A stretch of DNA of 32,000 bases from Candidatus Saccharimonadota bacterium (GCA_963716945.1 OY970322.1:840001-872000); one strand, 5' to 3'. Numbered from the stretch's first letter, positions 4,781 to 32,000 are shown. Notes: a model not told the origin generated them from the sequence alone. Translations and numbers: made by a program.

Positions 4781-4785
4781 AATCC

Positions 4786-4815: not shown

Positions 4816-4832
4816 AGGCCGGGCCGCCGAAT

Positions 4833-13302: not shown

Positions 13303-14046
13303 TCAGTTTTCGATAGTAACGGCGGTACCGACAGAGGCCCAATTGTAGAGCCAGGCGGCGGTCGCCAGCGGCAGCTCGACGCAGCCGTGCGAAGCGTCGG
13401 CCGAATCGGGGCTGATGTTGCCAAAATCACTATTCGAGCGCCAGGTAGCATCGTGGAAGCCGTAGCTGCCGTACTGGTTATGCAAGAAAGGCATCCAATA
13501 AGACACCGGATCGCTCCAGCTGCCGGTGGTGTCCGAGCCGGTCAGCGTCAGGTCGCGCTCTTTGCCGTAAATGTGGTATGTGCCGGTCGGCGTCAGATCG
13601 GCCGCCAGGTACTCGATGCCGGTCACGACCGGCGAATCATAGGCCGTCGTCGCCCCGTCGCAAGCCCAGAGGTGGCGCTGGCTGATGCTGACCAGGACCA
13701 GCCGGCCGAGGCTGTTGCCGGCGCAATGGTTGGTGGCGGCGGCCGGGGCGGCAGCAGGCGTTTTGGCCGGCGCGGTTTTCGGCGTATTGGTCGAGACTGC
13801 CGCTGGAGTTTTGGCGGCGGCCGGCTGCTTAGCCGGTGAAAAACCGCCGCGCAGCATAAACAAACCGGCCGCGGCCGCCAACAAGACCGCGGCCAACAGC
13901 GGCCAACGACGGCTCTTGCGGCGGACGGCCTTAGCCCTGGACACCGGTTTGACCGGCCGTGCCGGGCGCCGGTTCGAGCGGTAATAGGAATAGCCGACCA
14001 GGCTGCCCGGCCGGACGGTTTTTTGATTGAGGGAAGTTGCGCTCAT
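13303..14046 (-). CDS. L,D-transpeptidase (YkuD domain), membrane-anchored
   Basis: 247 aa with a basic N-terminus, a TM helix and an Ala/Pro-rich linker. The YkuD-type catalytic motif SHGCVELP lies near the C-terminus. Confidence 0.85.
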   Translation of the reverse strand: MSATSLNQKTVRPGSLVGYSYYRSNRRPARPVKPVSRAKAVRRKSRRWPLLAAVLLAAAAGLFMLRGGFSPAKQPAAAKTPAAVSTNTPKTAPAKTPAAAPAAATNHCAGNSLGRLVLVSISQRHLWACDGATTAYDSPVVTGIEYLAADLTPTGTYHIYGKERDLTLTGSDTTGSWSDPVSYWMPFLHNQYGSYGFHDATWRSNSDFGNISPDSADASHGCVELPLATAAWLYNWASVGTAVTIEN

Positions 14047-14125
14047 ATAGCTGTTGGGCCCGCTTTTTGGGGGAAGCGGTTACCCGATATTACCAGTTTT
14101 GGTTGAATTTTGGCTGTGTTTATTT

Positions 14126-14989
14126 TTATAGAGACTCTTTTAGTATACCATCCCTGGCCCGCCAGGCTTGCAAGAATCTGACTGCCAGATATAACGCGAA
14201 CGCGGCGCTGGTTATGAAGAAGCTAACCGGATAAGGCTGATAGTAAGAGATGAACAGGCCGAACCAGGTAGCCGACAAGGCAACCCCAACCGATATGAGA
14301 ATCCCCGTCATCGGACGTCGGGCCAGCCGCTCGGCGACAGCCGCCGGCGTAACCATCAGGGCGAAAATCAGCAGCACGCCGACCACCTGGACGGCAATCG
14401 AGGTAGCCAGGGCCAGCAGCAACATGAAGGCCATGTTCATACCTAGGATAGAAACGCCTTTGGCCTCGGCCACGTCCTCGTCCAGCGAGGTGAATAACAG
14501 CCGCCGGTAGAGCACGACGATTGCTATGAGAGTCAGGACGCCGGCAATTGCCGTTATAATGACGTCGCCGGTACTGATGCCTAAAATTTCACCGAATAAT
14601 AATGAATAGGCTTCGGTGGCGTAACCCTTGTACAGACTTATAAATAACACTCCTAGCCCCAGCATGAAAGCCAAAACCGTGCCGATCTGGACGTCGCGGC
14701 TGGCGGCTCTTCGGCCCAGGGCCGCCATTGACAGACCACCACCCGAGGTAAACGCCAGCAAGCCGACCAGCGGATTAAAGCCCAGCAGCACGGCCCCGGC
14801 GGCGCCGGCAAAGCCGATATGCGACAGCGCGTGGGCCGCGAACGACAGCCGCCTGAGAACTACGAAATAGCCGACCACGCCGGCGACAATCGCCACGATC
14901 GTCCCGGCCTCGAAGGCATGCTGCATAAAACCGTACTGCCACATGGTCTGCAGATCGCTCCAGAGGTTAAGGCTGAAACCGTTAGTCAT
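14126..14989 (-). CDS. znuB: Metal (Zn/Mn) ABC transporter permease, ABC-3 family
   Basis: 287 aa polytopic membrane protein typical of ZnuB/MntB-type permeases. It overlaps the ATPase gene by 8 nt. Confidence 0.9.
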   Translation of the reverse strand: MTNGFSLNLWSDLQTMWQYGFMQHAFEAGTIVAIVAGVVGYFVVLRRLSFAAHALSHIGFAGAAGAVLLGFNPLVGLLAFTSGGGLSMAALGRRAASRDVQIGTVLAFMLGLGVLFISLYKGYATEAYSLLFGEILGISTGDVIITAIAGVLTLIAIVVLYRRLLFTSLDEDVAEAKGVSILGMNMAFMLLLALATSIAVQVVGVLLIFALMVTPAAVAERLARRPMTGILISVGVALSATWFGLFISYYQPYPVSFFITSAAFALYLAVRFLQAWRARDGILKESL

Positions 14990-15782
14990 GGTGGACCGCC
15001 TCTTCGGTTCCGAGCACGGCTACCCGGCCGCGCGAATCGCGCAGTACTTCCACCGGCGCGTCATATAGTTTTGACAACGCTTCGGTCGTAATAATCTGCT
15101 TGGGCGTGCCCGTGGCTATCCGGCCGTTGACGGCGTAAATCAAGCGGTCGACGACCGGCAGCAGCGGGTTTATATCATGGGCGATCAGCAGGACGGCCAC
15201 GCCTTGGGTACGGGCTACTTCGGCCACCAGCTGCACCAGCTCGGCCTCGCGGCGAATATCAAGATTAGCCAGCGGCTCGTCAAGCAGCAGCAGGTCCGGC
15301 TGGCCGGCCAGAGCCTGCGCCAGGAAAACCCGCTGGAGTTCGCCGCCCGACAATTCGCCCAGCGGCCGCCCCGCCAGGGTTTCAGCTTGAACGGCCCGCA
15401 AAGACTCCAGAGCCTGCCGGCGTTCAGCGGCAGCTTGGGAGGGCAGCGCCGCGCCCCAGCGGCCGCCGCTAATACCCAGCCGGACCAGCTCGAGCGCTTC
15501 CAAGCGAAGTTCACTGTCAATCGGATGGCGCTGCGGCACATAGCCGATTCGGGGGTTGCCGCGGTGCGGCGGACTGTCAAAAATTTCCAGGCGGCCGCCC
15601 AGCGGTTTAGACAGCCCGAGCAACAGCCGGAATAATGTCGTTTTGCCGGCGCCGTTTGGGCCTAAGACGCCGACGAACTCGCCTTCGCGGACGGTGAAAT
15701 CGGCGTTTTGCCAGATCAGCTTGCTGCCATAACCGGCCGACAGGCCGGCGGCGCGGACGATAACGGCCGGATTTTTAGTCAT
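14982..15782 (-). CDS. znuC: Metal ABC transporter ATP-binding protein
   Basis: Walker A GPNGAGKTT, signature LSGGELQR and Walker B LLLLDEP. It sits between the SBP and permease genes. Confidence 0.9.
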   Translation of the reverse strand: MTKNPAVIVRAAGLSAGYGSKLIWQNADFTVREGEFVGVLGPNGAGKTTLFRLLLGLSKPLGGRLEIFDSPPHRGNPRIGYVPQRHPIDSELRLEALELVRLGISGGRWGAALPSQAAAERRQALESLRAVQAETLAGRPLGELSGGELQRVFLAQALAGQPDLLLLDEPLANLDIRREAELVQLVAEVARTQGVAVLLIAHDINPLLPVVDRLIYAVNGRIATGTPKQIITTEALSKLYDAPVEVLRDSRGRVAVLGTEEAVHHD

Positions 15783-15793
15783 TCGTTCTCATT

Positions 15794-16714
15794 CTACTGC
15801 CCCAAAGCGTTGGCGTTCAAGGCGTTTTCCAGATTGATCAGTTCGGCGTTCATCCAATCCTGGAAAGTCGTGTCCGGCGGCTGGACGGTCTCGGTAACGC
15901 CGACGACCGGGATGTTATTGTCGGCTGCCAGCTTCTTGATGCTGTCAGTCAGCGGCGTGACGGTCTGCTCGTTGTAGACAAGGACCTTAACCTGTCCGCC
16001 TTGAAGCTGCTGTTGGAAAGTCACGATGCTGCCGGTCGGCGGATCGTTGCCCTCGGCGACGGCTTCGATGAAGGCCGGGGGCGAAACCAGGTCCAGCCCG
16101 GCAGCATTAGCCAAATACTGGAAAATATCTTCGGTAGCGGCGACTTTGGTACCGCCAAACTGCCGCTTGATGTCGGCTATCCGGTTTTGGTAAGGCGCCA
16201 GCGACGCCTGCACCGTCTTCAGCTGTTGCAGGTAGTAAGTCTTGCCGCCCGGATCCAGCGCTATCAGATCCTTGTCCATTTGGGCAACGGCCTGATTAAC
16301 GTAAGCCGGGTTATACCAGAGATGGGGATTATCGCCTTCCTTTTTGCCGACCAGCGTCGCCACGGTCAGGACTTTACGACTCGGGTTGGGCTGGGCGCTA
16401 AGCAGTTTGTTGCCCCAGCTGTCGTAGCCGGCGCCGTTGAGAATGACATAATTGGCGGCGGCGAAAGACCGGGCATCTTTGGTATTGCTCTCATATTCGT
16501 GGGGGTCGGCGTTCGGATCGGAGACGATCGACGTGACAACCACCCGATTACCGCCCAGCTGAGAGGCCAGGCTGCCCCAGAAATTTTCGGCGGCCACGAT
16601 GTGGAGCTTGGTGCCGGAGGACGGACTATTACTATGGTGAAAGCTTAAGCCGATGGCTGCTGCTATGACAATTATTATGGCTGAGCCAATCATGGCGGGT
16701 TTACGGAATGACAT
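15794..16714 (-). CDS. znuA: Metal ABC transporter substrate-binding protein (ZnuA/TroA-like)
   Basis: 306 aa with an N-terminal anchor and the cluster-9 SBP pattern (DPHEYE, NPHLWYNP). An SD AGGAAAG lies 6 nt upstream. It is divergent from zur. Confidence 0.9.
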   Translation of the reverse strand: MSFRKPAMIGSAIIIVIAAAIGLSFHHSNSPSSGTKLHIVAAENFWGSLASQLGGNRVVVTSIVSDPNADPHEYESNTKDARSFAAANYVILNGAGYDSWGNKLLSAQPNPSRKVLTVATLVGKKEGDNPHLWYNPAYVNQAVAQMDKDLIALDPGGKTYYLQQLKTVQASLAPYQNRIADIKRQFGGTKVAATEDIFQYLANAAGLDLVSPPAFIEAVAEGNDPPTGSIVTFQQQLQGGQVKVLVYNEQTVTPLTDSIKKLAADNNIPVVGVTETVQPPDTTFQDWMNAELINLENALNANALGQ

Positions 16715-19216: not shown

Positions 19217-20203
19217 ATGATAATGCTTATCTTCGTCGAAGTCCTGTTGCTGGTCGCCGCTTCCGCCATCTGTTCCGGCCTCAATATCGCCGTTATGTCG
19301 CTGGACCTCGGCGACCTCCGGCGCAAGGCCAAACTCGGCAATCGGGCCGCGGCCCGGGTCCTGCCGCTCCGGCGCAACGGCCACCTGACGCTGGCCAGCA
19401 TCCTCTTGACGAACGTGGCAGCCGTCTCGGCCACTTCGCTGGTACTCAACCAACGGCTTAACGGCTGGGCGGCCGGCTTAGCCAGCACGCTGTTAATCGT
19501 CATCTTCGGCGAAGTCCTGCCGCAAGCCCTGTTCTCCAAGAACCCGCTGGCCTGGTCCAGCTTCTTCGCGCCGGTATTGAAGGCCATGATGTTTATAACC
19601 TACATTGTCAGCAAGCCGCTACAGCTGTTGCTCGATAGGCTCTTCCCCCATGAACACCCTCGGCTGCAGAGCCGCCACGAACTAGGCCTGCTGATTGCCG
19701 AACACCTCGACAGCGAAGGCAGCGAGCTTGACGAGGATGAAGTCGAAATCATCCGCGGCGCCCTCCAGCTCAGCGAGAAGCGCGTCCGCGACATCATGAC
19801 CGACATCCGCCATACCTATTGGCTGACGCGCGAGACCGCCTTGGATGATCCGAAAATTGACGAGATCAAACTCCAGGGCTTCAGCCGCATCCCGATCTTC
19901 AACCAGCAGCTGACCAAATGCTACGGCCTGCTGCTGATGAAGGACCTGGTCGACATCGACTTTGACGATAATGCCTACAAGGTTGACGACATGCCGCTCT
20001 ACCCCGTCCAACTGGTTGGCAGCATGACGGCCCTGGACACGATGTTCCGCAAATTTATCGCCGCCGGCACGCACCTCATCCCGATCGAGCGCGACGACAA
20101 GATCATCGGCATCGTCACCATCGAAGACCTGATCGAAGAAATCCTGGGCCACGAAATCGAGGACGAAACCGACCGGCTGAGGCAGCGGCCCCTAATCAAA
20201 TAG
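19217..20203 (+). CDS. CNNM/HlyC-CorC-type transporter-associated protein (DUF21 membrane domain plus CBS pair)
   Basis: 328 aa with four N-terminal TM helices (DUF21-like). The motif RVRDIMTDI begins a CBS pair. There is no C-terminal CorC_HlyC domain. An extended -10 TGCTATAAT (19203-19211) lies immediately upstream. Confidence 0.85.
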   Translation: MIMLIFVEVLLLVAASAICSGLNIAVMSLDLGDLRRKAKLGNRAAARVLPLRRNGHLTLASILLTNVAAVSATSLVLNQRLNGWAAGLASTLLIVIFGEVLPQALFSKNPLAWSSFFAPVLKAMMFITYIVSKPLQLLLDRLFPHEHPRLQSRHELGLLIAEHLDSEGSELDEDEVEIIRGALQLSEKRVRDIMTDIRHTYWLTRETALDDPKIDEIKLQGFSRIPIFNQQLTKCYGLLLMKDLVDIDFDDNAYKVDDMPLYPVQLVGSMTALDTMFRKFIAAGTHLIPIERDDKIIGIVTIEDLIEEILGHEIEDETDRLRQRPLIK

Positions 20204-20983
20204 CGGCCGGGCGGTGGCCAAAGTACCGCCGGCAAATTGCTCGAATAGTTTTTCGGGCTCGCTGCCAGTCTGAAGCTTAGCGTAAGGCAAAATAGCACCG
20301 CTGAAACCCTCTGTCTGCCAATAAGCCCCGCCCGGCAGCTTAACATCGGTGAAACCGGCCGGTTCGGGATAAGCCGTCAGGTACAAATACGGCTCCGGAA
20401 TCGTTTCATCGCCGGTCGAGAAGCCCAAGCCCAACTGCCGCTCGTCGTCATGCGGGAACCACACCAGCGACAAATCGAAATGGTGCGGATAGAGCAGGAT
20501 CGGGCTGGTCACGCCTTCGCCAAGCGAGGCTTTCAGCTTCCGGAACCGTGCGTCCAGCCACCATAGCGCCTCGGCATAAGCCAGCACCTGCTCCTTATCG
20601 ACCGACAAGCCGCCGGCCTTGAACTTCGGCTCTTCCAGCTCGGCCTCGACGCCCTTGCCCGCCAGCCAGTCACGAAAGATCTGCATCGCCGCCGGCCCGT
20701 CGCAGTCTTGCAACTTCCAGTTCTGGTTGCCCAGCCGCAGTTTGCCGCGCACCAGGTCGATGCTCACCCGAATCTCTTCGCCGGCCACTATGAAAGTCTG
20801 CGTACTGATACCGCGCATCGTCACTTCCAAACCGTACTGCCACTGCCGCGGATGTTTCGGCAGGAATGCCCGCTGCAAACTGCCGATAGCCAGCGCCATA
20901 TCCCGCAGGCAATCGCGCGTCGGTCCCAGCTCGGCAGCCGCCAGCGGCGGCAATGGTTTATTCATACCGTTTAAGTTTAGCAA
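20192..20983 (-). CDS. Conserved hypothetical protein (possibly DUF5996-like, from memory)
   Basis: 263 aa with native GC. The motif YPHHFDLSLVWF recalls DUF5996-type proteins. This is unverified. Confidence 0.55.
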   Translation of the reverse strand: MLNLNGMNKPLPPLAAAELGPTRDCLRDMALAIGSLQRAFLPKHPRQWQYGLEVTMRGISTQTFIVAGEEIRVSIDLVRGKLRLGNQNWKLQDCDGPAAMQIFRDWLAGKGVEAELEEPKFKAGGLSVDKEQVLAYAEALWWLDARFRKLKASLGEGVTSPILLYPHHFDLSLVWFPHDDERQLGLGFSTGDETIPEPYLYLTAYPEPAGFTDVKLPGGAYWQTEGFSGAILPYAKLQTGSEPEKLFEQFAGGTLATARPLFD

Positions 20984-21735: not shown

Positions 21736-22593
21736 ATGAAATCAACCAGACGAGACGAACGCGGCTTCGGCCACGCCGTCACCATAGTATTAGCCGTAAT
21801 CGTCATCGCCGCCATTGCCGCCATCGGCTGGCAAGTCACCAAGAAGAACAAGACGACGCCGGCCGCGACGAACACCAGTACCACCGCGGCCGTCACCAAT
21901 AGCGCCGAAGCTTCCTGTAACAAGGTCTACCACGACACCAACCTGTGTAAGTTTGCCGCCAACAGCGCCGACTTCGCCAAGACCGCTTACACCGCCGTCG
22001 ACACCAGCGTCGACGCCCAGGGCCAGACCAGCAGCATCACCATCAAATCCGACGGCAAAGGCAACACCGCCCTAACCAGCACCGCCGCCGGCCAGAGCTT
22101 CGACAGCATTGAGATCGGCACCACCGTCTATACCAAAGACCCGGCTTCCAACACCTGGACCAAGTACACCTCCAACGCCCCGGCCGTCAGCAACCCGGCC
22201 AGCGACATCAAGACCAACTTCAGCACCAGCACCACCCCGGCCGCCCAGCAGATCCAGTACAAGAACCTCGGCAAAACCGCCTGCGGCAAACTAACCTGCT
22301 TCAAGTACCAGATCATCGACCCCGCCAACGCCGGCACCACCCAGTACGCCTGGTTCGACACTAACAGCTACCGCCTCCAGGAATATTCCAGCAAAGGCAG
22401 CGACGGCAGCACCAACACCTTCGTCATAACCTACGGCGCTGTCAGCATCACCGCCCCCTCGCCCGTAACCGACGCCTCAGCCGCCGCCAGCTCCGGCACC
22501 GGCGCCTCCTCCAGCACCCCAACCGCCGCCCAAGTCCAAGCCGCCGAACAGCAGGCCGCCGCGGCTGCTGCTTCCGCCCAATCCGGTCAGTAA
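21736..22593 (+). CDS. Membrane-anchored extracytoplasmic protein, Thr/Ala/Ser-rich
   Basis: 285 aa with an N-terminal anchor (AVTIVLAVIVIAAIAAIGW), two Cys pairs and low-complexity T/A/S linkers at both ends. Native high GC. Confidence 0.7.
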   Translation: MKSTRRDERGFGHAVTIVLAVIVIAAIAAIGWQVTKKNKTTPAATNTSTTAAVTNSAEASCNKVYHDTNLCKFAANSADFAKTAYTAVDTSVDAQGQTSSITIKSDGKGNTALTSTAAGQSFDSIEIGTTVYTKDPASNTWTKYTSNAPAVSNPASDIKTNFSTSTTPAAQQIQYKNLGKTACGKLTCFKYQIIDPANAGTTQYAWFDTNSYRLQEYSSKGSDGSTNTFVITYGAVSITAPSPVTDASAAASSGTGASSSTPTAAQVQAAEQQAAAAAASAQSGQ

Positions 22594-22635
22594 TAACTAA
22601 TCCTTCTTTAGTTTGTTGAAAGCCAGTTATCTTTT

Positions 22636-23085
22636 TTATAGTGCTGGGAGTATTTTTTGCGGGAACTCATTTTCGCCAATTTTACCTTTAAGTCTGCCAT
22701 CGCTACCTGATACTGAGTATTTCTGACGCGGTCTACGTACAATCCTAATCCATTCATTAAGGCCGTGATCCTCATCCAAGGCGGCCTTTAGTTCCTGAAA
22801 ACTTAAGCATACTATTCCATCGTCGTTACAAACAAGTGCAACAAAAACTGTTTTAAACGTTTCTTGCATTCTATGTATATCATCTTGGTGGTCTTGATGA
22901 AAGGTAAAAATCCAAGGCGATAGTCGGTTAGTTGAGTGTTTTATGTATAAACCGACATTGTCATTGAGTATATAGGCTGCGTTAGCGCTCCTACAAACAA
23001 AACTTTCTACTTTGACCCCGCCTGGTACACCATGAATTAATCTCGTAAGCACAGTGCCATGAAAAAATTCATATTTATGAATCAT
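22636..23085 (-). CDS. Hypothetical 149-aa protein, tightly linked downstream partner of the Z1-domain ATPase
   Basis: Its ATG lies 3 nt after the Z1 gene stop (TAAtacATG). The alternating hydrophobic pattern suggests a small alpha/beta domain. The E6...D42...K49 (LYIKHS) spacing is loosely PD-(D/E)XK-like, but the acidic residue of the (D/E)xK motif is not evident. Confidence 0.7.
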   Translation of the reverse strand: MIHKYEFFHGTVLTRLIHGVPGGVKVESFVCRSANAAYILNDNVGLYIKHSTNRLSPWIFTFHQDHQDDIHRMQETFKTVFVALVCNDDGIVCLSFQELKAALDEDHGLNEWIRIVRRPRQKYSVSGSDGRLKGKIGENEFPQKILPAL

Positions 23086-23088
23086 GTA

Positions 23089-24972
23089 TTATTTATAGCG
23101 TCTATTTTTTAAAAATCTTATATTACCAGCTTCAGGAGCGTATTTATAGAATACTCTGGCCATTCCTTCGGGATTTTTAAAAATCTTTATGTGGTGGATG
23201 GCACGGGGAAACTTAGGCTGTTCCAGAGTGTTTTCTGCCATGAAGCCCCTAGTACGCTGGATATTTTTCACATCCGCACTTTTATAAGATACATCAAGAG
23301 CTGTGGTGCGGTGTACCGCAATAGACTCATTACCAAAAGGACTAAAGTCTCTAATAAATTCCAGCACATATAATGGTAAAGAGTCTTCAGGCAATAATGA
23401 TTTAAGCTGTTTAAGTTTTGGTGCGGAATTGATATCGCTATTTATGAGATCGTCAATTTCGGAGGTGTAAGCGAAAATTTGCCAACTCATCTCACCACTA
23501 TCGAGTGTCACATTTGTTTTATTTATGCTTGAGGATGCAGCAGCTGAAACTCGGGAATCTTCTAGCCAAACTGGGCTCCCTTGACCAGAACGTATTGCCG
23601 ATAGGGCCAGGCGGTGAAAAACAAAGCATTTCTGCCATCCTAGGTATAGTCGTTCGGGGATATGTAATTCAAAATATTCAAGATACTTACCTCTGGTGCC
23701 AAACATTCGTGCTCTCTGAATATAGGTGTCCTGTTGAATTTTATGCTTCACGTCACGTGTGAAAAACATACTAAGTAAATTCTCGAAAGTTACTCCTCTG
23801 GAAACTATATTACCCCCAATTGCTATTGTAAAAAGAGAAGACGGGCTAGTCGCTGACTTATACTCATTTGCAGCTTTATCAGAATTACTATTCATGACAA
23901 CAATGTTATTACGGCCTATGTTGGTCTTAACAAACTTGGTCAAAATGTCCTCCCTGTTAGGATAGTTTTTTAGAGCTATTTCCCAAAGACGTTTTACATA
24001 TGCCTCATATTTAGGATCATCCTCGTCTTTTAGAACATTTAATATCTTAACTACTTGTTTGTAATCTTCAGTATGATCCACTTTTTTCCCGCTAGTGTGT
24101 ACCAACATACTGTAGTTTTGTTCTTGCTCATTTTTGTAGAGATTGAGATACGCCACGTTAATCATGAAGCTTAGTAATGCATCCCTTAGATATTTTGGAG
24201 CATCATGATCTTCTGGTAATAAAACTAGCTTATACTTTAGCGTCTCTCCATTATCATCCTGGGCACCCTGTGTGGGGAAGAATTTATCTTGTCCTGTATA
24301 TAGAGGATGTGGAGGAAAATCCACCCATTTTTCGTTGTCATTTTCGAATGTATTATTTAGGTCAAGTCTGGCGGGTGTGGCAGTAACGCCAATGTAGATT
24401 CCGTCTGAACCTATTAGCTTTTCAACAAGTTCGTTAATTTTAGTTTTTTCATTTTTATTGATTTTTGCGTTTGGACTTGCATAATCAGCCTCATCATCAA
24501 TTACTACGCGCCCATGAATACGATCAATTCGTGACAAAAGCTTTTGGAGATCGCTAGAATTCTTCTTACTAAATATCACCCAATACCCTTTATTAAGCTC
24601 GACGCTTGGATCCATAATTTCATGGAACCTCTTAGGTGCCGGGTCAAGACCCGAACGCGAGAACCGCTCTAGATTTTGTTCAAGAAGTTGCACTGAATCA
24701 TTTAACAGCAAGATAATAATTTTATGCCCATCATCAAGGAGCCTTGCAGTTAGAGCAATCATCATTTCAGTCTTACCACTCTGCGGTTCACCATAAACCA
24801 CAAATGAACGAGTCGCCTGATGAACTATATTAACAATTGATTTATCTACGGCTAGCTCTATTCCGTCGGTCCAAAGCCCTTTTTTCTTTAATAACTTGAG
24901 ATTACTCTCGTAACGAAAGCTTGCATGCTCAACTGCGGCGCCTTTAAACTTGTTGATGTCAAAATCCGCCAT
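23089..24972 (-). CDS. Z1-domain protein: P-loop/DEAD-like SF2-type ATPase fused to a Z1 domain
   Basis: 627 aa with Walker A GEPQSGKT (aa 61-68), Walker B DDEAD (159-163) and VTATPARL. The Z1-type signature is GGNIVSRGVTFENL...QQDTYIQRARMFG (aa 386-425), compared with the family pattern GGxxLSRGxTxEGL...DTLxQxxRWFGYR. An SD AGAGG lies 6 nt upstream. Confidence 0.85.
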   Translation of the reverse strand: MADFDINKFKGAAVEHASFRYESNLKLLKKKGLWTDGIELAVDKSIVNIVHQATRSFVVYGEPQSGKTEMMIALTARLLDDGHKIIILLLNDSVQLLEQNLERFSRSGLDPAPKRFHEIMDPSVELNKGYWVIFSKKNSSDLQKLLSRIDRIHGRVVIDDEADYASPNAKINKNEKTKINELVEKLIGSDGIYIGVTATPARLDLNNTFENDNEKWVDFPPHPLYTGQDKFFPTQGAQDDNGETLKYKLVLLPEDHDAPKYLRDALLSFMINVAYLNLYKNEQEQNYSMLVHTSGKKVDHTEDYKQVVKILNVLKDEDDPKYEAYVKRLWEIALKNYPNREDILTKFVKTNIGRNNIVVMNSNSDKAANEYKSATSPSSLFTIAIGGNIVSRGVTFENLLSMFFTRDVKHKIQQDTYIQRARMFGTRGKYLEYFELHIPERLYLGWQKCFVFHRLALSAIRSGQGSPVWLEDSRVSAAASSSINKTNVTLDSGEMSWQIFAYTSEIDDLINSDINSAPKLKQLKSLLPEDSLPLYVLEFIRDFSPFGNESIAVHRTTALDVSYKSADVKNIQRTRGFMAENTLEQPKFPRAIHHIKIFKNPEGMARVFYKYAPEAGNIRFLKNRRYK

Positions 24973-25079
24973 CGCATACCTCTTTCAATTAAGATATTTT
25001 TATGCCTTTAATACTAGCATCTTTTCAGATTATAAAAATGAAATGTCAATTCTTCTTTAGTGCAAGTATAATGATCTAA

Positions 25080-26258
25080 GTGAAAATTAAGCATATTCAT
25101 CCTTTCCCTGCCCGTATGGCTCCCGAGATAGCTCTTGATGAATGCAACAAACTACAGAAGGGATCAACCATTCTCGATCCAATGTGTGGATCTGGAACAA
25201 CCCTACGAATGGCGATTAAGTCAAGCATGAACGCCATAGGAAGTGATTTAGATCCTCTTGCAGTGCTAATAGCAACCGTAGGCACAACTTATCTGGATGA
25301 GGATACAGTAGTTAAAGTCGCTCAAGATGTGGTCTCTAAAGCCCGGCTGCTTTCGTTAAAAGAGACTCGTCTGCCATGGATAGACACCGATCAAGAGACG
25401 AAAGCTTTTATAGACTTCTGGTTTGCAAAAAAACAGATTAACGATCTACGTAAGATTGTCACTATTATATTTAGAGATTATGAATCAGAAACTCAGTCTT
25501 TTCTCAAGATTGTAGTAAGTCGCCTAATAATCACAAAAGATATGTCCGCGTCGCTAGCTAGAGACACATCTCATAGCAGGCCGCACCGAATCTCTTTAAC
25601 CAATGACTATGACGTTTTTGCCAATTATATAAAATATGCTAAGCAAGTAGCACAACGGCTGCCTAAAGAACCTACGTCCTTAGTGAAAGTAAGTCGTAGT
25701 GATGCTAGGCAACTAAATGACATCGCTGATAATTCAATTGATGCTGTCATTACATCTCCACCATACTTGAACGCCATAGACTACATGCGAGGTAATAAGC
25801 TCTCTCTAGTATGGCTTGGCTATAAAGTCAGTGACTTACGTTATGTTAGAGGCATTAGTATTGGCGCAGAAAAGAGACTACAGGAATCTATAGATCAAGG
25901 ACTTCTATCACGATTAACAAAGGACATGCATTTTTATAAAGACCTAGGAAGCCCTCATAAAGGTATGTTCGAGCGATATATGATTGATATGCTCGCATTA
26001 ATGAAAGAGGTCAGGAGAGTGCTAAAGCCAGGTAGTAAGGCAACATTAGTTGTAGGTAATTCATGCTTGCGAGGAACTTTCATTAAAAATACTACGGCAG
26101 TTATCTCAGCTGCAGAAATACTAGGTTTTAAATTCTTAGATGAAGTTGCTCATGAGCTACCTCAAAATATGCGATATCTTCCAACTCCGGCAAGTAGCCA
26201 AAAAACACCTCTATCAAAACGAATACGTACTGAGTCAATCCTTTATTTTAGCAAATAA
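25080..26258 (+). CDS. DNA amino-methyltransferase (N4-cytosine or N6-adenine), SPPY motif
   Basis: 392 aa with SAM motif I ILDPMCGSGTT (aa 31-41) and catalytic motif IV DAVITSPPY (aa 221-229), separated by about 185 aa (alpha-like order). A VLKPGSKATLVVGNS motif follows motif IV. The only in-frame start is GTG 25080, directly preceded by a stop. Confidence 0.85.
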   Translation: MKIKHIHPFPARMAPEIALDECNKLQKGSTILDPMCGSGTTLRMAIKSSMNAIGSDLDPLAVLIATVGTTYLDEDTVVKVAQDVVSKARLLSLKETRLPWIDTDQETKAFIDFWFAKKQINDLRKIVTIIFRDYESETQSFLKIVVSRLIITKDMSASLARDTSHSRPHRISLTNDYDVFANYIKYAKQVAQRLPKEPTSLVKVSRSDARQLNDIADNSIDAVITSPPYLNAIDYMRGNKLSLVWLGYKVSDLRYVRGISIGAEKRLQESIDQGLLSRLTKDMHFYKDLGSPHKGMFERYMIDMLALMKEVRRVLKPGSKATLVVGNSCLRGTFIKNTTAVISAAEILGFKFLDEVAHELPQNMRYLPTPASSQKTPLSKRIRTESILYFSK

Positions 26259-28123
26259 CCTATGTCGCATACGCTATCTAAATAATGCTGTGTCTCCGCA
26301 TCTACCGAATGCACATAACAGCCTTTTTGGCCGCGGGTCATGAGAGTTCGATAGGTGTTCTTTATAATCTGGTCGGCGAGTGCTTCGGCTGCTGCTGGAT
26401 CTTCTGCATGCATCTTCTTATAGCCATGGACCGACTTGTCAGAGCCAGCGCGTTTGGTGGCGTCAGTGATAATTCTGCCGTTGCGGACTATTAAGTCTGG
26501 ACCGATAATTACGCCCACATAGTCCATTTCAAGACCTTGGCAGGTGTGGATGCAGCCGATTTCGTTGACTGCATCAGGCTTCAAAATCCATAAATTACCA
26601 TCGCTAGCTAAGTTCCAGCGCATGGCAAAATCATACTCGTCTATGATAACGTCTTTAACCTGGCCTGTTCGATCATTCTTGCTCTGCCATTTCCAGCAAT
26701 AGCCGGCAACAAGTCGTGCCTTATTTGCTATCTTATTCTTTTCAAAAATTAGATCGCGCAGCTCATTGGGATTATTTATAACCTTAAAATCGTAATCGAT
26801 TCCGGCCATGGTTTCGTTTGCCGTTTCGTGAATCTGGAGAGTGTTATCTAGCCAAGCTAAATAGCCGTCCGAGCCATTGCAGCGAAACTGGGATTCAAGA
26901 ATTAGCTCTTGGGTCTTTGCTCCAATCTGGAAGGCCCACATTTTTATTTCCTCGCTCTCACCGATGTCTTTCAGCGTTACTTTCTGGTCTTCGTCTAGGA
27001 AGAAAATACTAAACTTGGATGATTCTATGATTTCTTTAATCTGATTTTCGCCTTTGTTTTGATACATGCCTGACTTGGCGTTCAGGCGGTGCGCTTCATC
27101 GACTATAAGAGCATCAAATAAGTTGGGCTTCGTTTCTGTGAACGAGCCTGACCCGCTAAACAAATTGCTTATATGGCTCTTGCGGAAACTTTTTGTTAAC
27201 TTGCTTTCGTAAACATCGCGCGGCGCGGCATTTCTAGTGACATACTTCGTTAGCAACTGCTTTTTTGTAAGCTCGACCAGAAGATTTATTGCTACTACGG
27301 ACTTACCCGTGCCGGGCCCACCTTGTACGATCAAGACGTTTTTATTATTGACAGTTGATTGCTCCGCTAGCTTAAGAGCAGTTTCATAAACCACTTTTTG
27401 GTCATCTATCATAAGAAATTCTTGATTGCCTTGCAGCATTGAGTCGAGCTTGTCGGCCAGATTCTTGGATGGCTTAATCTTGCCATGGTCAATGCGATAC
27501 ATGACCTGATCCTTATCGCCGTACTTAACATTGGCTTTTATAAACTCTCGGAGCTTCAAGGCATCCGGCTTAAGAAATACCGGCGCCTTATCCGTATAGT
27601 CCTTATAAAACTCATTGGTGATAACGTCATCCTGTTCATAGTTGTGTAGATAGGCACATGGGTGTAGTTGAATATGTTCTTCGTGTACTGTTTGATTAAA
27701 GTCTTCAAGCAAGCAGGCGTAAGTCCACGCTTGGTAAGAAGGATGGGAGACTTCCCTTTCGGCTCGGCCGACATAGCTGACAACAATGCCATCCTTATCA
27801 CTTAAGGTCGCTTCGCTCCATTGTTTTAATTCAATCAGAATGGCAGCATCTTGACGCTTGGCGTTCTTGCCGGCAATTATGAAGTCGATCCTCTTTGACG
27901 ATTGCGGAATGTGATATTCGATCGCTATTTCGGTGTTTTGTGATATTTCATCATCTTCCAAAACTCTGTACATGTACTGCATGGAGTTTTCCCAAGATCT
28001 TATTTCACTCATGCTCGTTTTGTGACCGGTGGCTTTTTTAAAGGCTCTATGGACTATGTCACCGATGTCATTAGACATTACGTCCTTCATGAAGTCCTCT
28101 TTTGTAGAGGTGTATACAATCAC
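26243..28123 (-). CDS. DUF2075-type protein: N-terminal PD-(D/E)XK nuclease-like domain plus SF1-like P-loop ATPase (Schlafen-helicase-like)
   Basis: 626 aa. Nuclease-like residues are E69, D80 (RIDFII) and E98-L-K100 (ILIELKQW). It has Walker A GGPGTGKS (268-275) and Walker B IVDEAHRL (340-347). Family-typical motifs are ESQFRCNGSDGYLAWL and HTCQGLEMDYVGVIIG. The GTG start overlaps the MazG-like stop. Confidence 0.85.
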   Translation of the reverse strand: MIVYTSTKEDFMKDVMSNDIGDIVHRAFKKATGHKTSMSEIRSWENSMQYMYRVLEDDEISQNTEIAIEYHIPQSSKRIDFIIAGKNAKRQDAAILIELKQWSEATLSDKDGIVVSYVGRAEREVSHPSYQAWTYACLLEDFNQTVHEEHIQLHPCAYLHNYEQDDVITNEFYKDYTDKAPVFLKPDALKLREFIKANVKYGDKDQVMYRIDHGKIKPSKNLADKLDSMLQGNQEFLMIDDQKVVYETALKLAEQSTVNNKNVLIVQGGPGTGKSVVAINLLVELTKKQLLTKYVTRNAAPRDVYESKLTKSFRKSHISNLFSGSGSFTETKPNLFDALIVDEAHRLNAKSGMYQNKGENQIKEIIESSKFSIFFLDEDQKVTLKDIGESEEIKMWAFQIGAKTQELILESQFRCNGSDGYLAWLDNTLQIHETANETMAGIDYDFKVINNPNELRDLIFEKNKIANKARLVAGYCWKWQSKNDRTGQVKDVIIDEYDFAMRWNLASDGNLWILKPDAVNEIGCIHTCQGLEMDYVGVIIGPDLIVRNGRIITDATKRAGSDKSVHGYKKMHAEDPAAAEALADQIIKNTYRTLMTRGQKGCYVHSVDAETQHYLDSVCDIGYLLK

Positions 28124-28473
28124 TTGTCTAGGTCCGTATATTTCTTGTGATTGCCTTTGGCTTTTTTGACTGGGTATTTTGCTGCGTTTTTCTCCATTTT
28201 TTTCTTAAGAGCGGTCGGCAAATCGATTTTTAAATCATTAGCCAGCAGCAACACCCAGTAAAGAACGTCGGCTAATTCATCGCTTACGTCATCAATGTGC
28301 TCGCTTAGATGTTGCTGTATTTCCTGTTTGTCTTTCCATTGAAAATGTTCAAGCAGTTCGCCAGCCTCTAGTACGAGTGAAATAGCTACATCTTTTGGGT
28401 TATGGAATTGTTGCCAATCGCGAGCATCACGAAACTCAATAATTTTTTGCTGCAACTCCCTCAAATCGCTCAT
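28120..28473 (-). CDS. MazG-like all-alpha nucleoside triphosphate pyrophosphohydrolase
   Basis: 117 aa with FRDARDW..FH.PKD...L.LEAGELLEHFQW (the EExxE-type metal site) and SDELADVLYWVLLLAN (the ExxD site). It is first in a two-gene operon. An extended -10 TGTTAATAT (28491-28483) lies 9 nt upstream of the ATG. Confidence 0.85.
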   Translation of the reverse strand: MSDLRELQQKIIEFRDARDWQQFHNPKDVAISLVLEAGELLEHFQWKDKQEIQQHLSEHIDDVSDELADVLYWVLLLANDLKIDLPTALKKKMEKNAAKYPVKKAKGNHKKYTDLDK

Positions 28474-28517
28474 ATTAACTGAATATTAACACTTTTTAAT
28501 CTGTTTTGGAACGGTTG

Positions 28518-29549
28518 TTACTTAGCTTTAGACCGATATTCTTCTGTAATCGCATAATGCAGCCCGACGAGCAGAGCCAAGTTGACGAGGAACCCGGGGA
28601 TGGCGCCGAATTGGATGCGGGAGAAGACGAAGAATTGGGTTAGTAATAGGTTGATTAGGACGGCGCGGCGGAAGAGTTCGAAGGCTTCGAGGCGGGAGCT
28701 TAGGATTCTCAGGGCGCCGGTGACGGCGAAGAAGCCGGCGACGGCCGACGTGATTAGCTGGCCGACGATTAGGCGGTTGGCGTAGGAGTCGTGGGCCTGG
28801 AAGATCGAGTGCAGGTCGTCGAAGTTGTTGAAGACGGTGGCCAGCGTGATGACCAGGAAGACGGCGGCCTGGGCAATGAACAGCGTGCCGACTACGCGGC
28901 TGGAGGCGCGGTTGTGCCAGAAGCGTTCGTAGCGTTTGTCGGCGGCGGTCAGGAAACGCTGGAAGCGGTTGGGTTCGGGCGGCGGGACGGTGTCGAGACG
29001 GGCCAGCAGTTTTTTCAGCTCCTGGGTGATCGGGCTATGCGGGTCGGATTTGGCTAACAGCTGGTCGATCTTGCGCTTGTCGGCGCTGTTGAGGTTCTTG
29101 AGCACGGCTTCTTCGAGTTGGGCCAGGGCGTTCAGTTCGTACTCGTGCTGCGTCAGACGGTTGGGCCGGCTGAGGAAGTTGAAGGTCAGGTAGAGGATGA
29201 TGAAAATGGCGTAAATCAGGCCGATCGTCGGGCGGAAGAAGTAGTTGTTATCCTTGGTCAGGAATTTGCCTAGCTCGTCGATGAACACGCCGAAGCCGGC
29301 ACCGCCCAGGAAGGCCGATATCCGCTGTACCCTGGCCCCTAGGAACGACAGGTTCAGCGTCAGGGCGACCAGCATCAATAAGCCGCCGTAAAGCATGTGG
29401 GCGATGTGGAGGTTGCCGCCGCCGACCTGCGGGTAGCCGGTGATACTCAGGAAGAAGCGCAGCAGCAGCACGGCGCTGATCGCCGAAACCAGGAAAATCT
29501 CCAGGTGGTCGCGGGCGCGGACATTGCGGTAGAAGAGCTTTTGTGACAT
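28518..29549 (-). CDS. Hypothetical polytopic membrane protein
   Basis: 343 aa with about 7-8 hydrophobic helices split by a roughly 90-aa helical cytoplasmic insert. Native GC, except for an AT-richer last ~15 codons next to the island. Confidence 0.7.
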   Translation of the reverse strand: MSQKLFYRNVRARDHLEIFLVSAISAVLLLRFFLSITGYPQVGGGNLHIAHMLYGGLLMLVALTLNLSFLGARVQRISAFLGGAGFGVFIDELGKFLTKDNNYFFRPTIGLIYAIFIILYLTFNFLSRPNRLTQHEYELNALAQLEEAVLKNLNSADKRKIDQLLAKSDPHSPITQELKKLLARLDTVPPPEPNRFQRFLTAADKRYERFWHNRASSRVVGTLFIAQAAVFLVITLATVFNNFDDLHSIFQAHDSYANRLIVGQLITSAVAGFFAVTGALRILSSRLEAFELFRRAVLINLLLTQFFVFSRIQFGAIPGFLVNLALLVGLHYAITEEYRSKAK

Positions 29550-30264: not shown

Positions 30265-32000
30265 TCAGCGCTTGCGCTTCTTGGGGTCGAGTTCACGCTT
30301 GCGCAGACGCAGGCTCTTCGGCGTTACCTCTAATAATTCGTCGTTTTCGATGAAGTCGAGGCATTGTTCGAGGCTGAGTATAGTCGGCGGTGTCAGTTGG
30401 ACCGTGCCGTCGGAGGACGAACTGCGCATGTTGGTCAGGTGCTTGGCCTTGCAAACGTTGATTTCCATGTCTTCCTGGCGGGTGTTGAGGCCGATAATCT
30501 GGCCGGCGTAAATCTTCTCGGCCGGACCGATGAAGATCGTACCGCGGGCCTCGGCCGTTTCCAGGGCGTAAGGCGTGGTGGTGCCGGTCTCGAACCCGAT
30601 CAGCACGCCGTTGCGCAGCTGCTGCAGGGCGGCGGTTTGCGGCTGCGAACCGATAACCAGGCTGTTCATGACGATCGTGCCCTTGGTGTTGGTCAGCAGG
30701 ATGTTGCGCATACCGAGCAGGGCGCGGGTCGGCATCTCGTAGATCAGCTTGGTCACGCCTTTGGAGGCCGAAGTGAATTGTTCCTTGAGGGTCGCCCGGC
30801 GCTGGCCGAGTTCCATCTGGACGGTACCGACGTGTTCGGCCGGGACTTCGATGATAACTTCTTCGACCGGCTCCATGGTTTGGCCGTTTTCTTCGTGGGT
30901 AACGACCTGCGGCCGGCCGACTTCGAACTCGTAGCCTTCGCGGCGCATGGTTTCGATCAGGACGCCGAGGTGCAGTTCGCCGCGGCCGGCGACCGTGAAG
31001 CCGATGCCGTCTTCTTCGACCTGGAGGCCGACGTTGGTTTCCAGTTCTTTGTCGAGGCGGCCGGCGATCTGGCGCGAGGTATTGAATTCGCCTTCCTGTC
31101 CCTTGAACGGGCTGGTGTTGGGGCCGAGGTAGATCCTCAGCGTCGGCGCTTCGACTTCGATAACCGGCAGGGCTTCCGGCTGTTCGGCGTCGGCGACGGT
31201 TTCGCCGATCTGGGCGTCGGCGATGCCGGTCAGCTGGACGATGTCGCCGGCCACGCCTTCCGGCACTTCGAACTTCGACACGCCGTGGCTCATGAAGACG
31301 TTGTCGACTTTGGCTTTGGTTTGGGTCCCGTCTTTTTTGCACAGCACGACCTGGTCGCCGGGTTTGACCCGGCCGCGGGTGATGCGGCCGATGGCGTATT
31401 TGCCCTTGAAAGTATCGCTGGCCAGGGCCGTTACCAGCATCTGGAAAGGCTTGTCGAGCTCGACGCTCGGTGCCGGGACGTGTTCGATAATGGCTTGGAA
31501 AATGGCTTCCAGGTCGCCCTTGGCTTCCGCGTCCTGCGGCGGCTCGCTCCAGGCTTTGCCGGCCCGGCCGATGGCGTAATAAACCGGGTAGTGCAGCTGG
31601 TCCTCGTGGACGGCCAGCTCCAGGAACAAGTCGGCCAGCTCGTCTTCGACTTCTTTGATGCGGGCGGCGTCCTTGTCGATTTTGTTAATGATAACTATCG
31701 GCTTGAGCTCGCTCTCCAGCGCCTTCTCAAGCACGAACTTGGTCTGCGGCATCGGACCTTCCTGGGCGTCGACAATCAGGATGCAGCCGTCGGCCATGTT
31801 GAGCGTCCGCTCGACCTCGCCGGAGAAATCGGCGTGGCCCGGCGTGTCGATAATGTTGATGCGGTAGTCATCGTGCTGGACGGCCGTGACTTTGGCGGTA
31901 ATCGTAATCCCCCGCTCCTTCTCCTGGTCGCCGCTGTCCATAATCAGCTCCTGGTTCATTTCGGCCTGATTGTCGCGGAAAGTCTGCGACTGCTTGAGCA
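30265..32000 (-). CDS. typA: Translational GTPase TypA/BipA (N-terminus lies beyond the right edge)
   Basis: G-domain motifs ERGITI, DTPGHADF and NKIDK, followed by EF-G-like domains and a basic C-terminus. The frame stays open upstream of the track's Met to the window edge (…LKQSQTFRDNQAEMNQELIMDS…), as in BipA homologues. Confidence 0.95.
   Translation of the reverse strand, partial: LKQSQTFRDNQAEMNQELIMDSGDQEKERGITITAKVTAVQHDDYRINIIDTPGHADFSGEVERTLNMADGCILIVDAQEGPMPQTKFVLEKALESELKPIVIINKIDKDAARIKEVEDELADLFLELAVHEDQLHYPVYYAIGRAGKAWSEPPQDAEAKGDLEAIFQAIIEHVPAPSVELDKPFQMLVTALASDTFKGKYAIGRITRGRVKPGDQVVLCKKDGTQTKAKVDNVFMSHGVSKFEVPEGVAGDIVQLTGIADAQIGETVADAEQPEALPVIEVEAPTLRIYLGPNTSPFKGQEGEFNTSRQIAGRLDKELETNVGLQVEEDGIGFTVAGRGELHLGVLIETMRREGYEFEVGRPQVVTHEENGQTMEPVEEVIIEVPAEHVGTVQMELGQRRATLKEQFTSASKGVTKLIYEMPTRALLGMRNILLTNTKGTIVMNSLVIGSQPQTAALQQLRNGVLIGFETGTTTPYALETAEARGTIFIGPAEKIYAGQIIGLNTRQEDMEINVCKAKHLTNMRSSSSDGTVQLTPPTILSLEQCLDFIENDELLEVTPKSLRLRKRELDPKKRKR

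Follow-up and report, generated by a model that had tools for sequence, protein, structure and literature searches.

Among the known systems closest to the genes studied here are the restriction-modification (R-M) systems CglI and NgoAVII and the phage defense protein Nhi. CglI and NgoAVII are three-gene systems whose R2H2 complex translocates on double-stranded DNA (dsDNA), at about 170 ATP per second per motor, and cuts unmethylated targets (PMC4267653, PMC5861437). Nhi of S. epidermidis and Nhi-like single genes protect against phage (bioRxiv 10.1101/776245; 10.1101/2022.05.11.491447). We analyzed a 32,000-nucleotide (nt) stretch of the genome of a Candidatus Saccharimonadota bacterium (GCA_963716945.1, OY970322.1:840001-872000), called the window throughout, in which positions 22594 to 28517 form a block of low guanine-plus-cytosine (GC) content that holds five genes. 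Three of them, which we call module A, encode a small protein of 149 amino acids (aa), an ATPase with a Z1 domain, and a DNA methyltransferase with an SPPY motif; the other two, module B, encode a DUF2075 protein and a MazG-like nucleoside triphosphate (NTP) pyrophosphohydrolase. We consider it fairly likely that the block consists of two independent defense modules placed tail to tail in one variable slot, that module A is a CglI/NgoAVII-like R-M system and module B an Nhi-like protein coupled to MazG, and that the slot turns over by recombination. The features are listed in Table 1, and genomes and loci used for comparison carry our locus numbers (L002 to L151).

Comparison with other genomes separated the two modules. 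We surveyed 81 metagenomic or viral loci that carry a gene for the small protein, and neither DUF2075 nor MazG was present at any of them (0/81). MazG and DUF2075 in turn occur without the trio of module A at the same site, directly after the gene for a 343-aa membrane protein, in L005, L148, L149, and the sister lineage L150/L151, and they also occur without it on unrelated plasmids. The first-pass annotation of the window had implicitly taken the five genes as one unit, a reading that this distribution contradicts. At this locus, presence across the clade extends in part to MazG and DUF2075, which keep their low GC content there, and does not extend to the trio.

The sister lineage located the boundary between the modules. 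The proteins of L150/L151 are 95% (membrane protein), 95% (DUF2075), and 91% (MazG) identical to those of the window, and nucleotide identity to L150 stays at ~0.90 with no step through the membrane gene, the spacer, MazG, and DUF2075. Identity then drops from ~0.9 to background at 26260-26320. The C termini of the DUF2075 proteins read ...ETQHYLDSVCDIGYLLK in the window, ...ETRDYFKAEIKGNSNA in L150, and ...ETQQYFQSMT in L148, with the split after "...ETQHY," and the recent junction falls within the ~10 codons at the end of the gene. A single recent insertion of the whole block, as first implied, is incompatible with this collinearity and its break. The unbroken identity to L150 and its collapse at 26260-26320 show that MazG and DUF2075 are an old resident of the subclade, and the strain-specific cassette is the trio only (22594 to ~26270). 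Past DUF2075, L150 carries a 450-aa gene and a D12 methyltransferase, L148 an SDH-protease group, and L149 a pair of AAA_15/21 ATPases.

The GC content of module B does not date its arrival. Between L148 and the window, module B is 0.80 to 0.86 identical (~0.82) and the backbone 0.74 to 0.93, a similar divergence. MazG and DUF2075 nevertheless have a GC content of ~0.39 to 0.47 in five Saccharimonadales lineages with backbones of 0.51 to 0.62. Since module B has diverged like the backbone and yet is low in GC, low GC is no sign of recent arrival here. The right-hand end of the block is likewise old. The first-pass annotation had noted an AT-rich 3' end of the membrane gene and had taken it as a hint that the junction is placed there. 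The AT-rich tail is real, with a GC content of 0.40 in the last 48 nt against 0.60 in the rest of the gene and a third-codon-position GC content (GC3) of 0.23 in the last 13 codons against 0.86 in the gene body. The placement of the junction did not stand, because the tail peptide HYAITEEYRSKAK is identical in L150 and the spacer that follows is almost identical. Because L150 has this peptide and this spacer and is ~90% identical with no break, we dropped the reading of the tail as a recombination scar. The membrane-gene tails of the relatives have GC3 values of 0.46 to 0.62, all under those of their own gene bodies. We also rejected a recent transfer of MazG and DUF2075 between L005 and the lineage of the window through a crossover within the membrane gene; nucleotide identity in sliding windows was flat at 0.6 to 0.8, with no step.

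By composition the whole block is foreign to its surroundings, as had been proposed. Its GC content is 0.405, against 0.596 for the rest of the window (minus a patch at 1500-3000). In 300-nt windows the mean was 0.406 inside the block (standard deviation, 0.032; range, 0.34 to 0.49) and 0.596 outside it (standard deviation, 0.038; minimum, 0.47), with a sharp step at both ends. The earlier description of a fall from 70% to 30% was therefore right about the abruptness and overstated the size, which is ~60% to 40%. GC3 is 0.31 to 0.49 across the five genes (0.31 to 0.35 in module A and 0.43 to 0.49 in module B) and 0.65 to 0.84 in the flanking genes. The dinucleotide signature distance from the block to the rest was 94, and that of control chunks of equal size was 22 to 36. 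The five genes fill the block in the tight packing first described, with spacers of 42, 3, and 107 nt, overlaps of 16 and 4 nt, and a spacer of 44 nt, in that order. Profile searches recovered every domain that the first-pass annotation had named (Z1, SPPY methyltransferase, DUF2075, and MazG-like, with none for the 149-aa protein), and these matches bear out genes of a defense type that act on nucleic acids or nucleotides. PADLOC 2.0 made no call on the block, in keeping with the earlier view that it is not a named system.

We found none of the hallmarks of site-specifically integrated genomic islands, namely, an integrase or transposase, a tRNA target, and direct repeats, at the block, as the first-pass annotation had reported. 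No tRNA or tmRNA gene was found across the 32-kb window, and from 18354 to its right end none of the genes called or scanned had a domain of an integrase or a transposase. A search for flanking direct or inverted repeats gave only short, chance-level matches, the best being 17 nt at 88% with both copies within coding sequence. Promoter and terminator scans gave site counts not above those of shuffled sequence.

Table 1. Features of the low-GC block, its slot, and the corresponding segments of related genomes (window positions unless a locus is named)
Feature	Coordinates	Strand	Remarks
Left anchor, CNNM gene	19217-20203	+	Synteny
Left anchor, DUF5996 gene	20192-20983	-	Synteny
Native-GC lineage-specific gene, 144 aa	21007-21441	-	GC3 0.65
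Native-GC lineage-specific gene, 285 aa, Thr/Ala-rich	21736-22593	+	GC3 0.84
Left-edge AT-rich spacer, 42 nt	22594..22635		Directly 3' of the TAATAA stop of the native-GC 285-aa gene, which is GC-rich up to its stop
Small protein, 149 aa; stand-alone family; putative nuclease partner of the Z1 motor	22636-23085	-	Fold model
DEAD-Z1 SF2 helicase-like ATPase, 627 aa	23089-24972	-	Z1 and ResIII; stops 3 nt before the small gene
Divergent AT-rich intergenic region, 107 nt	24973..25079		Between the Z1 operon and the methyltransferase gene
SPPY amino-methyltransferase, 392 aa	25080-26258	+	N6_N4_Mtase, 6.6e-15; PADLOC MTase_II, 2.4e-30
Junction of modules A and B and recent recombination breakpoint	26243..26275		16-nt overlap between the methyltransferase and DUF2075 genes at their 3' ends; last ~10 DUF2075 codons unlike all relatives
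PD-(D/E)XK-DUF2075 nuclease-helicase (predicted), 626 aa	26243-28123	-	PF09848; GTG start
MazG-like NTP pyrophosphohydrolase (predicted), all-alpha, 117 aa	28120-28473	-	Pfam MazG-like, 4.1e-20
MazG and DUF2075, window	26243-28473		
MazG and DUF2075, L148	5601-7810		
MazG and DUF2075, L149	1204-3413		
MazG and DUF2075, L150	1414-3641		
MazG and DUF2075, L005	11112-13327		
Old right-hand junction	28474..28565		44-nt spacer and AT-rich last 16 codons of the membrane-protein gene
Right anchor, 343-aa multi-pass membrane protein	28518..29549	-	Adjoins TypA (30265-31959)
Slot in L017			Empty; anchors (membrane gene and CNNM) 63 bp apart
Slot in L002			Low-GC methyltransferase, MutH/Sau3AI-like endonuclease, and GmrSD
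Slot in L020			Methyltransferase and MvaI/BcnI endonuclease
Slot in L014			Methyltransferase and DUF5655
Slot in L013			T5orf172 nuclease and DEAD helicase
Slot in L007, L010, L016, and L018			Housekeeping-type genes (MscS, DUF2130, TGT, ABC transporter)
Slot in L005, after MazG and DUF2075	13333-15973		DUF6527 and DUF6791-ThiF (E1-like) pair; HTH-SocA/Panacea antitoxin-type gene

The motor of module A matched Z1 (PF10593) at residues 262 to 446 (5.6e-29; 101.8 bits versus a cutoff of 25), and its second-best Pfam match was ResIII at residues 58 to 202 (2.8e-07). It also matched the PADLOC model Helicase_II ("Type II helicase") at residues 48 to 449 (3.7e-42). Invariant in 120 Z1 homologues were the Walker A motif GEPQSGKT (residues 61 to 68), with Q for G, DDEAD (residues 159 to 163), TATP, motif VI Q419-R-A-R422 (QxxR), and two histidines 8 residues apart, H292 and H300. 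The hallmarks published for the DEAD-Z1 motor H.CglI are Q in Walker A, QxxR in motif VI, and the pair H282/H290 (PMC5861437), and by these motif definitions the protein is predicted to be a member of the DEAD-Z1 subfamily of superfamily 2 (SF2). The C-terminal domain (residues ~450 to 627) was modeled with a predicted local distance difference test (pLDDT) score of 76. This part of the protein (23092-23655 on the minus strand, residues 440 to 627) contains an invariant patch, H593-H594-x-K596...N600...R606, on a confidently modeled beta-hairpin. A profile of the C-domain returned only noise from PDB (PR10; E, 0.5), and a Pfam search at E values up to 10 returned nothing usable. A PLD or HNH reading of the HHxK...N patch was unsupported, with no meaningful Foldseek match. 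The Z1 region also matches MzaC of the MZA system (1.7e-11 in PADLOC and 6.6e-13 in NCBIfam); unlike in MZA, this match covers only the Z1 stretch, scores 47.5 bits against a cutoff of 1,500, and is accompanied by no other Mza gene that we found.

The 149-aa protein belongs to a large family of its own. It had no match in Pfam, NCBIfam, or PADLOC, with nothing usable in Pfam at E values up to 10, and no match among PDB chains in a sequence search. It has 126 homologues at 40 to 70% identity, and the family numbers 987 representatives (E up to 0.001) in a library clustered at 50% identity. Of the best 150 of these representatives, 149 are stand-alone proteins of ~100 to 215 aa, the exception having 313 aa. 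A phage protein family of unknown function, phrog_28860, matches the full length of the protein (4.5e-12). An AlphaFold2 model (pLDDT, 86; predicted template-modeling score, 0.85) has the secondary-structure order H-E-E-E-E-H-E-E-H; the core that defines the PD-(D/E)XK fold is alpha-beta-beta-beta-alpha-beta. Foldseek placed Hjc, RecU, tRNA-splicing endonuclease, and PvuII at the top of its PDB matches and Holliday-junction resolvases and PD-(D/E)XK nucleases among those in BFVD, with probabilities up to 0.99 to 1.00 and template-modeling (TM) scores of 0.4 to 0.6; the best PDB and viral matches all have the PD-(D/E)XK fold. The model thus points to a PD-(D/E)XK, Hjc-like fold for the 149-aa protein. 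The family has 14 invariant residues (H9, G10, K49, R54, P57, W58, F60, F62, C86, G90, R117, Y123, G127, and G130) and three near-invariant ones (E6, D89, and E98), with E6 on helix 1. A comparison of the family with the N-terminal nuclease domain of the DUF2075 protein by hhalign showed no relation (probability, 0.2%).

The motif order of the methyltransferase is that of the alpha type, with motif I (CGSGT, residue 36) before motif IV (SPPY, residue 226). Between the two motifs lies a central region of ~190 aa in the position of a target-recognition domain. We take SPPY in motif IV to indicate N4-methylcytosine as the product. Upstream of the gene, a promoter-like site at 25043-25072 (plus strand) is a consensus match only, and counts of such sites were not above those in shuffled sequence.

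Gene linkage ties the three proteins of module A together. In all 76 loci with room for it, a Z1 gene lies upstream of the small gene, on its strand, with less than 60 bp between the two. A methyltransferase gene lies within 400 bp at 30 of the 38 assessable loci with the Z1 and small genes and one gene further away at 3 more, in three arrangements: upstream and codirectional, upstream and divergent (as in the window), or downstream. These partner methyltransferases fall into two classes, 37 to 61% or 22 to 27% identical to that of the window, and SPPY is present in all 38 (loci L054 to L144), whichever the class. Its constancy across two classes suggests that the kind of methylation, and not the enzyme lineage, is conserved. 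In three full contexts, the neighbors of the trio differ and include IS66 and a group of deaminase, NT5C, and HATPase genes. That group, on an Omnitrophica contig (L055, 8495-12787), follows the trio with a 338-aa protein with a dCMP-deaminase domain, an NT5C nucleotidase, and an 823-aa HATPase_c_3 protein, and it may be another, nucleotide-targeting defense group. In IMG/VR, a relative of the small protein occurs on one contig (L064), in a pair with Z1, so (pro)phage-like DNA is another carrier of the pair. At three loci, L090 (2164-2598), L095 (6001-6435), and L096 (962-1396), an intact small gene is preceded by only the last ~55 Z1 codons; these may be decayed systems or cases in which the small gene was retained alone.

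The arrangement of module A resembles that of CglI, NgoAVII, and BceSIV, which likewise combine a methyltransferase, a DEAD-Z1-C ATPase of ~630 aa, and a separate nuclease-type partner. The window motor shares with theirs the Z1 domain, ResIII, the PADLOC Type II helicase match, and the subfamily motifs. However, the R-subunit of CglI and NgoAVII consists of a PLD (HxK) nuclease and a B3-like domain, in place of which module A has the 149-aa protein with its predicted similarity to Hjc, RecU, and PvuII. Their methyltransferase is a C5-cytosine enzyme, and that of the window is an N6_N4_Mtase with SPPY. The analysis shows how domains and folds are assigned, the hallmark motifs, the linkage of the genes, their modularity, the synteny, and the breakpoints; we infer the enzymatic activities of both modules, the formation of complexes, the type of methylation, the antiphage effect, and the route of recombination. 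In module A, the SPPY methyltransferase would mark host DNA, the DEAD-Z1 protein would be an ATP-driven dsDNA translocase, and the 149-aa protein, translationally linked to Z1, would stand in for the PLD-B3 R-subunit, supplying the nuclease and possibly also reading the site. Incoming DNA that is unmethylated would then be bound, translocated, and cut. Z1 and the small protein may form an R2H2-like complex, as the 76/76 adjacency and the 3-nt spacer suggest.

In module B, the DUF2075 protein matched DUF2075/SLFN-g3_helicase (PF09848), a superfamily 1 (SF1)-type core, at residues 261 to 608 (6e-104). Its best PADLOC match was PDC-S41 (1.3e-16, N-terminal half), itself a predicted single-gene candidate, followed by AbiO (2.9e-12) and Nhi (2.3e-11), which matched only the helicase core (residues ~235 to 416). 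An N-terminal nuclease motif, E69 (IEY)...RIDF...IELKQW, is conserved in six of seven aligned sequences, all close homologues. In the seventh, from B. thuringiensis, the N-terminal domain is a different one and GIY-YIG-like; as the pairing with MazG holds there too, the link is with the helicase core. The DUF2075 protein had no match among PDB chains, and its N-terminal domain had nothing usable in Pfam at E values up to 10. Related Saccharimonadales have homologues that are 90 to 95% identical to it. Many homologues at 64 to 68% identity (P0264 to P0360) have ~770 to 823 aa, and a LexA-like Peptidase_S24 domain is fused in 22 of the best 120 DUF2075 matches listed; it could be a built-in sensor of DNA damage or RecA.

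The MazG-like protein (PF12643; 72.2 bits versus a cutoff of 27) has as its closest PDB match the dCTP pyrophosphatase DCTPP1/RS21-C6, over the whole protein (3.9e-21). Its metal-binding residues E36, E39, E42, E66, and D69 (ExxExxE and ExxD) are invariant, and the same motifs are kept in DCTPP1. In contrast to that enzyme, the window protein is bacterial, has 117 aa, and shares an operon with a nuclease-helicase. MazG lies directly upstream of DUF2075 in L005, L148, L149, L150, L062, L063, L060, and L146. The end of the MazG gene and the start of DUF2075 share 4 nt in the window and likewise in L005, L148, and L149; the 4-nt overlap of the window is conserved in L150 as well, though the gene there was called from a downstream start. 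The pair is also found on plasmids of Halalkalicoccus, Priestia, Marivirga, and the B. cereus group (B. thuringiensis/B. mycoides), and on those of Priestia and B. mycoides it lies among R-M genes. An IMG/VR scan gave no relative of DUF2075; with one small-protein contig in that database, the block is not evidently phage-borne.

The DUF2075 protein is built like Nhi and Nhi-like proteins, with a predicted N-terminal PD-(D/E)XK nuclease followed by a DUF2075 (PF09848) SF1-type helicase core. It differs from them in lying outside the Nhi family profile, given the partial match, and in its coupling to a MazG-like pyrophosphatase; in the literature searched, we found no mention of DUF2075 together with MazG. 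The Nhi-like nuclease-helicase would attack phage DNA or its replication intermediates. The DCTPP1-like MazG would most likely hydrolyze canonical or modified deoxynucleoside triphosphates (dNTPs), especially dCTP derivatives, and so starve or unmask phage DNA synthesis. By the tests run, neither module appears to belong to a named system; module A resembles CglI/NgoAVII (or a Type III system), and module B resembles Nhi.

Several observations weigh against this account of the two modules. The Foldseek E values for the 149-aa model are weak (0.002 to 0.1), and profile searches of its family gave no sequence link to any nuclease, the PDB search returning noise (ZIP2; E, 1.3). The conserved residues E6, K49, D89, and E98 depart from the canonical arrangement, D...ExK on strands 2 and 3, so the protein can be called a nuclease only putatively. 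The Z1 protein has no sequence match to any PDB chain, and for its C-domain Foldseek gave TM scores of 0.26 or less against PDB, with the H.CglI C-domain fold (6F1S) not in the top 50. A basal clade of Z1 and small-gene pairs (L064, L109, L122, and probably L115, with the Z1 gene at ~4100-6000 and the small gene from 6001) has no adjacent methyltransferase, which is unexpected for a classical restriction enzyme; the neighbors in L122 are a methionine aminopeptidase and a glycosyl hydrolase. Two unrelated methyltransferase classes beside a conserved Z1/small pair are a poor fit with sequence recognition by the small protein, and this combination fits a Type III-like model about as well. For module B, the link between MazG and DUF2075 is frequent but has exceptions (L059, L061, and L145 lack it), and the role of MazG is one that we purely infer. 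Module B has also stayed low in GC (~0.42 to 0.45), with no amelioration, in lineages where its descent seems to be vertical.

These points bear most directly on how module A recognizes its target. It could work like a Type III (or Type I) system whose Res subunit is split. The methyltransferase would then read the target and hold unmethylated sites, and a sequence-blind pair of Z1 and small protein would be recruited to them. Like Type III R-M systems, module A combines an amino-methyltransferase with an SF2 helicase-like ATPase, weakly matching ResIII, and a predicted PD-(D/E)XK-type nuclease function. Z1 (45 to 77% identity) and the small protein (40 to 70%) are conserved beside methyltransferases of two classes (22 to 27% identity between that of the window and the second class), the class mostly tracks the clades of the Z1 tree, as expected of coevolving partners, and the ~190-aa central region of the methyltransferase could read sequence. 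However, Type III Res joins an SF2 motor and a C-terminal PD-(D/E)XK nuclease in one polypeptide, with the target-recognition domain on Mod; motor and nuclease-fold protein are here separate genes in 76/76 loci. The window motor is of the DEAD-Z1 type, of which that of CglI is a true translocase (~170 ATP per second per monomer) and in this differs from the Type III switch. In CglI, the closest characterized DEAD-Z1 enzyme, recognition falls to a separate R-subunit and the methyltransferase acts alone, a conserved motor would have to dock on two unrelated classes of methyltransferase, several Z1/small pairs lack one nearby, and small PD-(D/E)XK enzymes of similar size, such as PvuII, read sequence themselves. 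We think a split Res rather unlikely. The small protein lacks canonical catalytic residues at the canonical places, and another reading is that the nuclease sits in the Z1 C-domain, in the hairpin with H593-H594-x-K596...N600...R606, and that the 149-aa protein is a noncatalytic adaptor, DNA-structure binder, or regulator. The patch is invariant, polar, and confidently modeled, and inactive proteins of the PD-(D/E)XK fold exist, for example, the XPF-like domain of Zip2 (weak profile match). Yet the C-domain resembles no nuclease fold or family, that of CglI binds DNA and does not cut, and the small protein is itself rich in invariant polar residues (H9, K49, R54, R117, and Y123, with near-invariant E6, D89, and E98). 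We consider a nuclease in the motor very improbable.

For module B, the alternative is housekeeping, with the MazG/DCTPP1-like protein clearing modified dNTPs that come from salvage and DUF2075 serving repair or recombination. The occurrence of module B at the same site with backbone-like divergence in several related lineages would suit such a role, as would the sanitizing function of DCTPP1 (by name and homology only) and the lack of de novo nucleotide synthesis in Saccharibacteria (PMC10187176). Against it, module B is patchy in Saccharimonadales (missing from L002, L003, L017, L020, and others, yet found in the distant L005), keeps a foreign composition, and lies among R-M genes on the Priestia and B. 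mycoides plasmids; its nuclease-plus-DUF2075 architecture is experimentally antiphage in Nhi and Nhi-like proteins, and it matches PADLOC PDC-S41 and, in part, AbiO/Nhi. Housekeeping is in our view quite improbable. There is hardly any chance that the five genes are one integrated, unnamed system that came from a low-GC donor in one recent transfer. Contiguous low GC, the absence of spacers, the 16-nt overlap of methyltransferase and DUF2075, and domains that all act on nucleic acids or nucleotides speak for one system, but the comparative data already contradict it: no small-protein locus of the 81 has DUF2075 or MazG, four related lineages show MazG and DUF2075 at the site and then other cassettes, and the ~90% identity of the sister lineage ends exactly at the module boundary. 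GC3 also differs between the modules, and the nonconserved last ~10 codons of DUF2075 resemble a secondary join.

The slot that holds the two modules is found across the group. Homologues of the 343-aa membrane protein occur in 52 genomes, mostly Candidatus Saccharimonadales/Saccharibacteria, and the conserved order is typA, membrane gene, variable segment, (DUF5996), CNNM, hydrolase. The left anchor is kept past the variable segment in L003, L005, L007, L008, L010, L014, L015, L017, L018, L020, L148, and L149. The slot is a recurrent exchange site whose cargo is often defense genes; the contents listed in Table 1 range from none to R-M genes, and the L005 genes after MazG and DUF2075 are further cargo of a defense or toxin-antitoxin type. 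Chromosomal defense-island hotspots in Enterobacteria and Pseudomonas hold variable cargo between conserved core genes. The present slot has the same fixed flanking core genes and is empty in one relative, with other R-M or defense cargo elsewhere. It differs from those hotspots in that the host genome, of the candidate phyla radiation (CPR), has ~1.1 Mb, the site has no integrase, tRNA, or repeats, and module B is stable while the adjoining position turns over. Cassettes would be exchanged without mobility genes, entering by natural transformation and recombining within the conserved flanks. In Saccharibacteria, which are naturally competent, DNA is integrated by homologous recombination (PMC10187176); with no mobility genes at the block, exchange through the flanks would be the simplest route.

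Two genes of native GC content lie between the left anchor and the block, and tblastn found no homologue of either at this place in relatives. The 144-aa protein has a weak match to an ORF of L002 (E, 8e-04). The 285-aa protein is rich in Thr, Ala, and Ser, with an N-terminal hydrophobic segment and degenerate internal repeats of 27 to 30 nt; the equivalent position in L002 holds an unrelated protein of similar composition, and we rejected homology to this analogous secreted protein, since none was found. A second low-GC patch of the window (1500-3000; GC, 0.41 versus 0.60) has a thioredoxin-reductase-like gene on its left (185-1144) and an FKBP gene on its right (3019-3600). It contains ORFs at 1710-2171 (153 aa, no Pfam match) and 2172-2783 (DUF6338, 7e-07) and may be another small accessory insertion.

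A wider reading, which we put forward only tentatively and hold to be somewhat less likely than its negation, is that Z1 and the ~150-aa protein constitute a distinct branch of ATP-dependent restriction and that MazG and DUF2075 constitute a two-gene immune module. The core partner family of such a branch has ~1,000 clusters at 50% identity and no Pfam model and is nearly always stand-alone. If the reading is true, a DEAD-Z1 translocase would drive a minimal nuclease belonging to a new PD-(D/E)XK-like family, and the N4-cytosine (SPPY) methyltransferases that mark self would be interchangeable and, in one clade, dispensable. Module B would link an attack on the nucleotide pool to an attack on DNA. 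The partnership of Z1 and the small protein is large, consistent, and unannotated, and the pairing of MazG with DUF2075 is broad and, in the literature searched, undescribed; the underlying principles are familiar.

For annotation, these results show that a sharp GC drop with defense-type domains should not be taken as one system. Comparison with a sister genome resolved the block into one resident module and one swapped cassette and shifted the true junction by 2.3 kb. For defense biology, the analysis flags two testable, widespread gene partnerships. The combination of Z1, a ~150-aa partner with a predicted nuclease fold from an unannotated family, and an SPPY methyltransferase would add a second architecture, apparently a much larger one, to that of CglI, the one DEAD-Z1 enzyme studied biochemically. 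The pairing of MazG with DUF2075 is conserved in organisms as far apart as CPR bacteria, Bacillus, and haloarchaea. For the organism itself, a 1.1-Mb episymbiont genome keeps a slot in which R-M and defense genes turn over without a mobility gene, and this fits natural competence.

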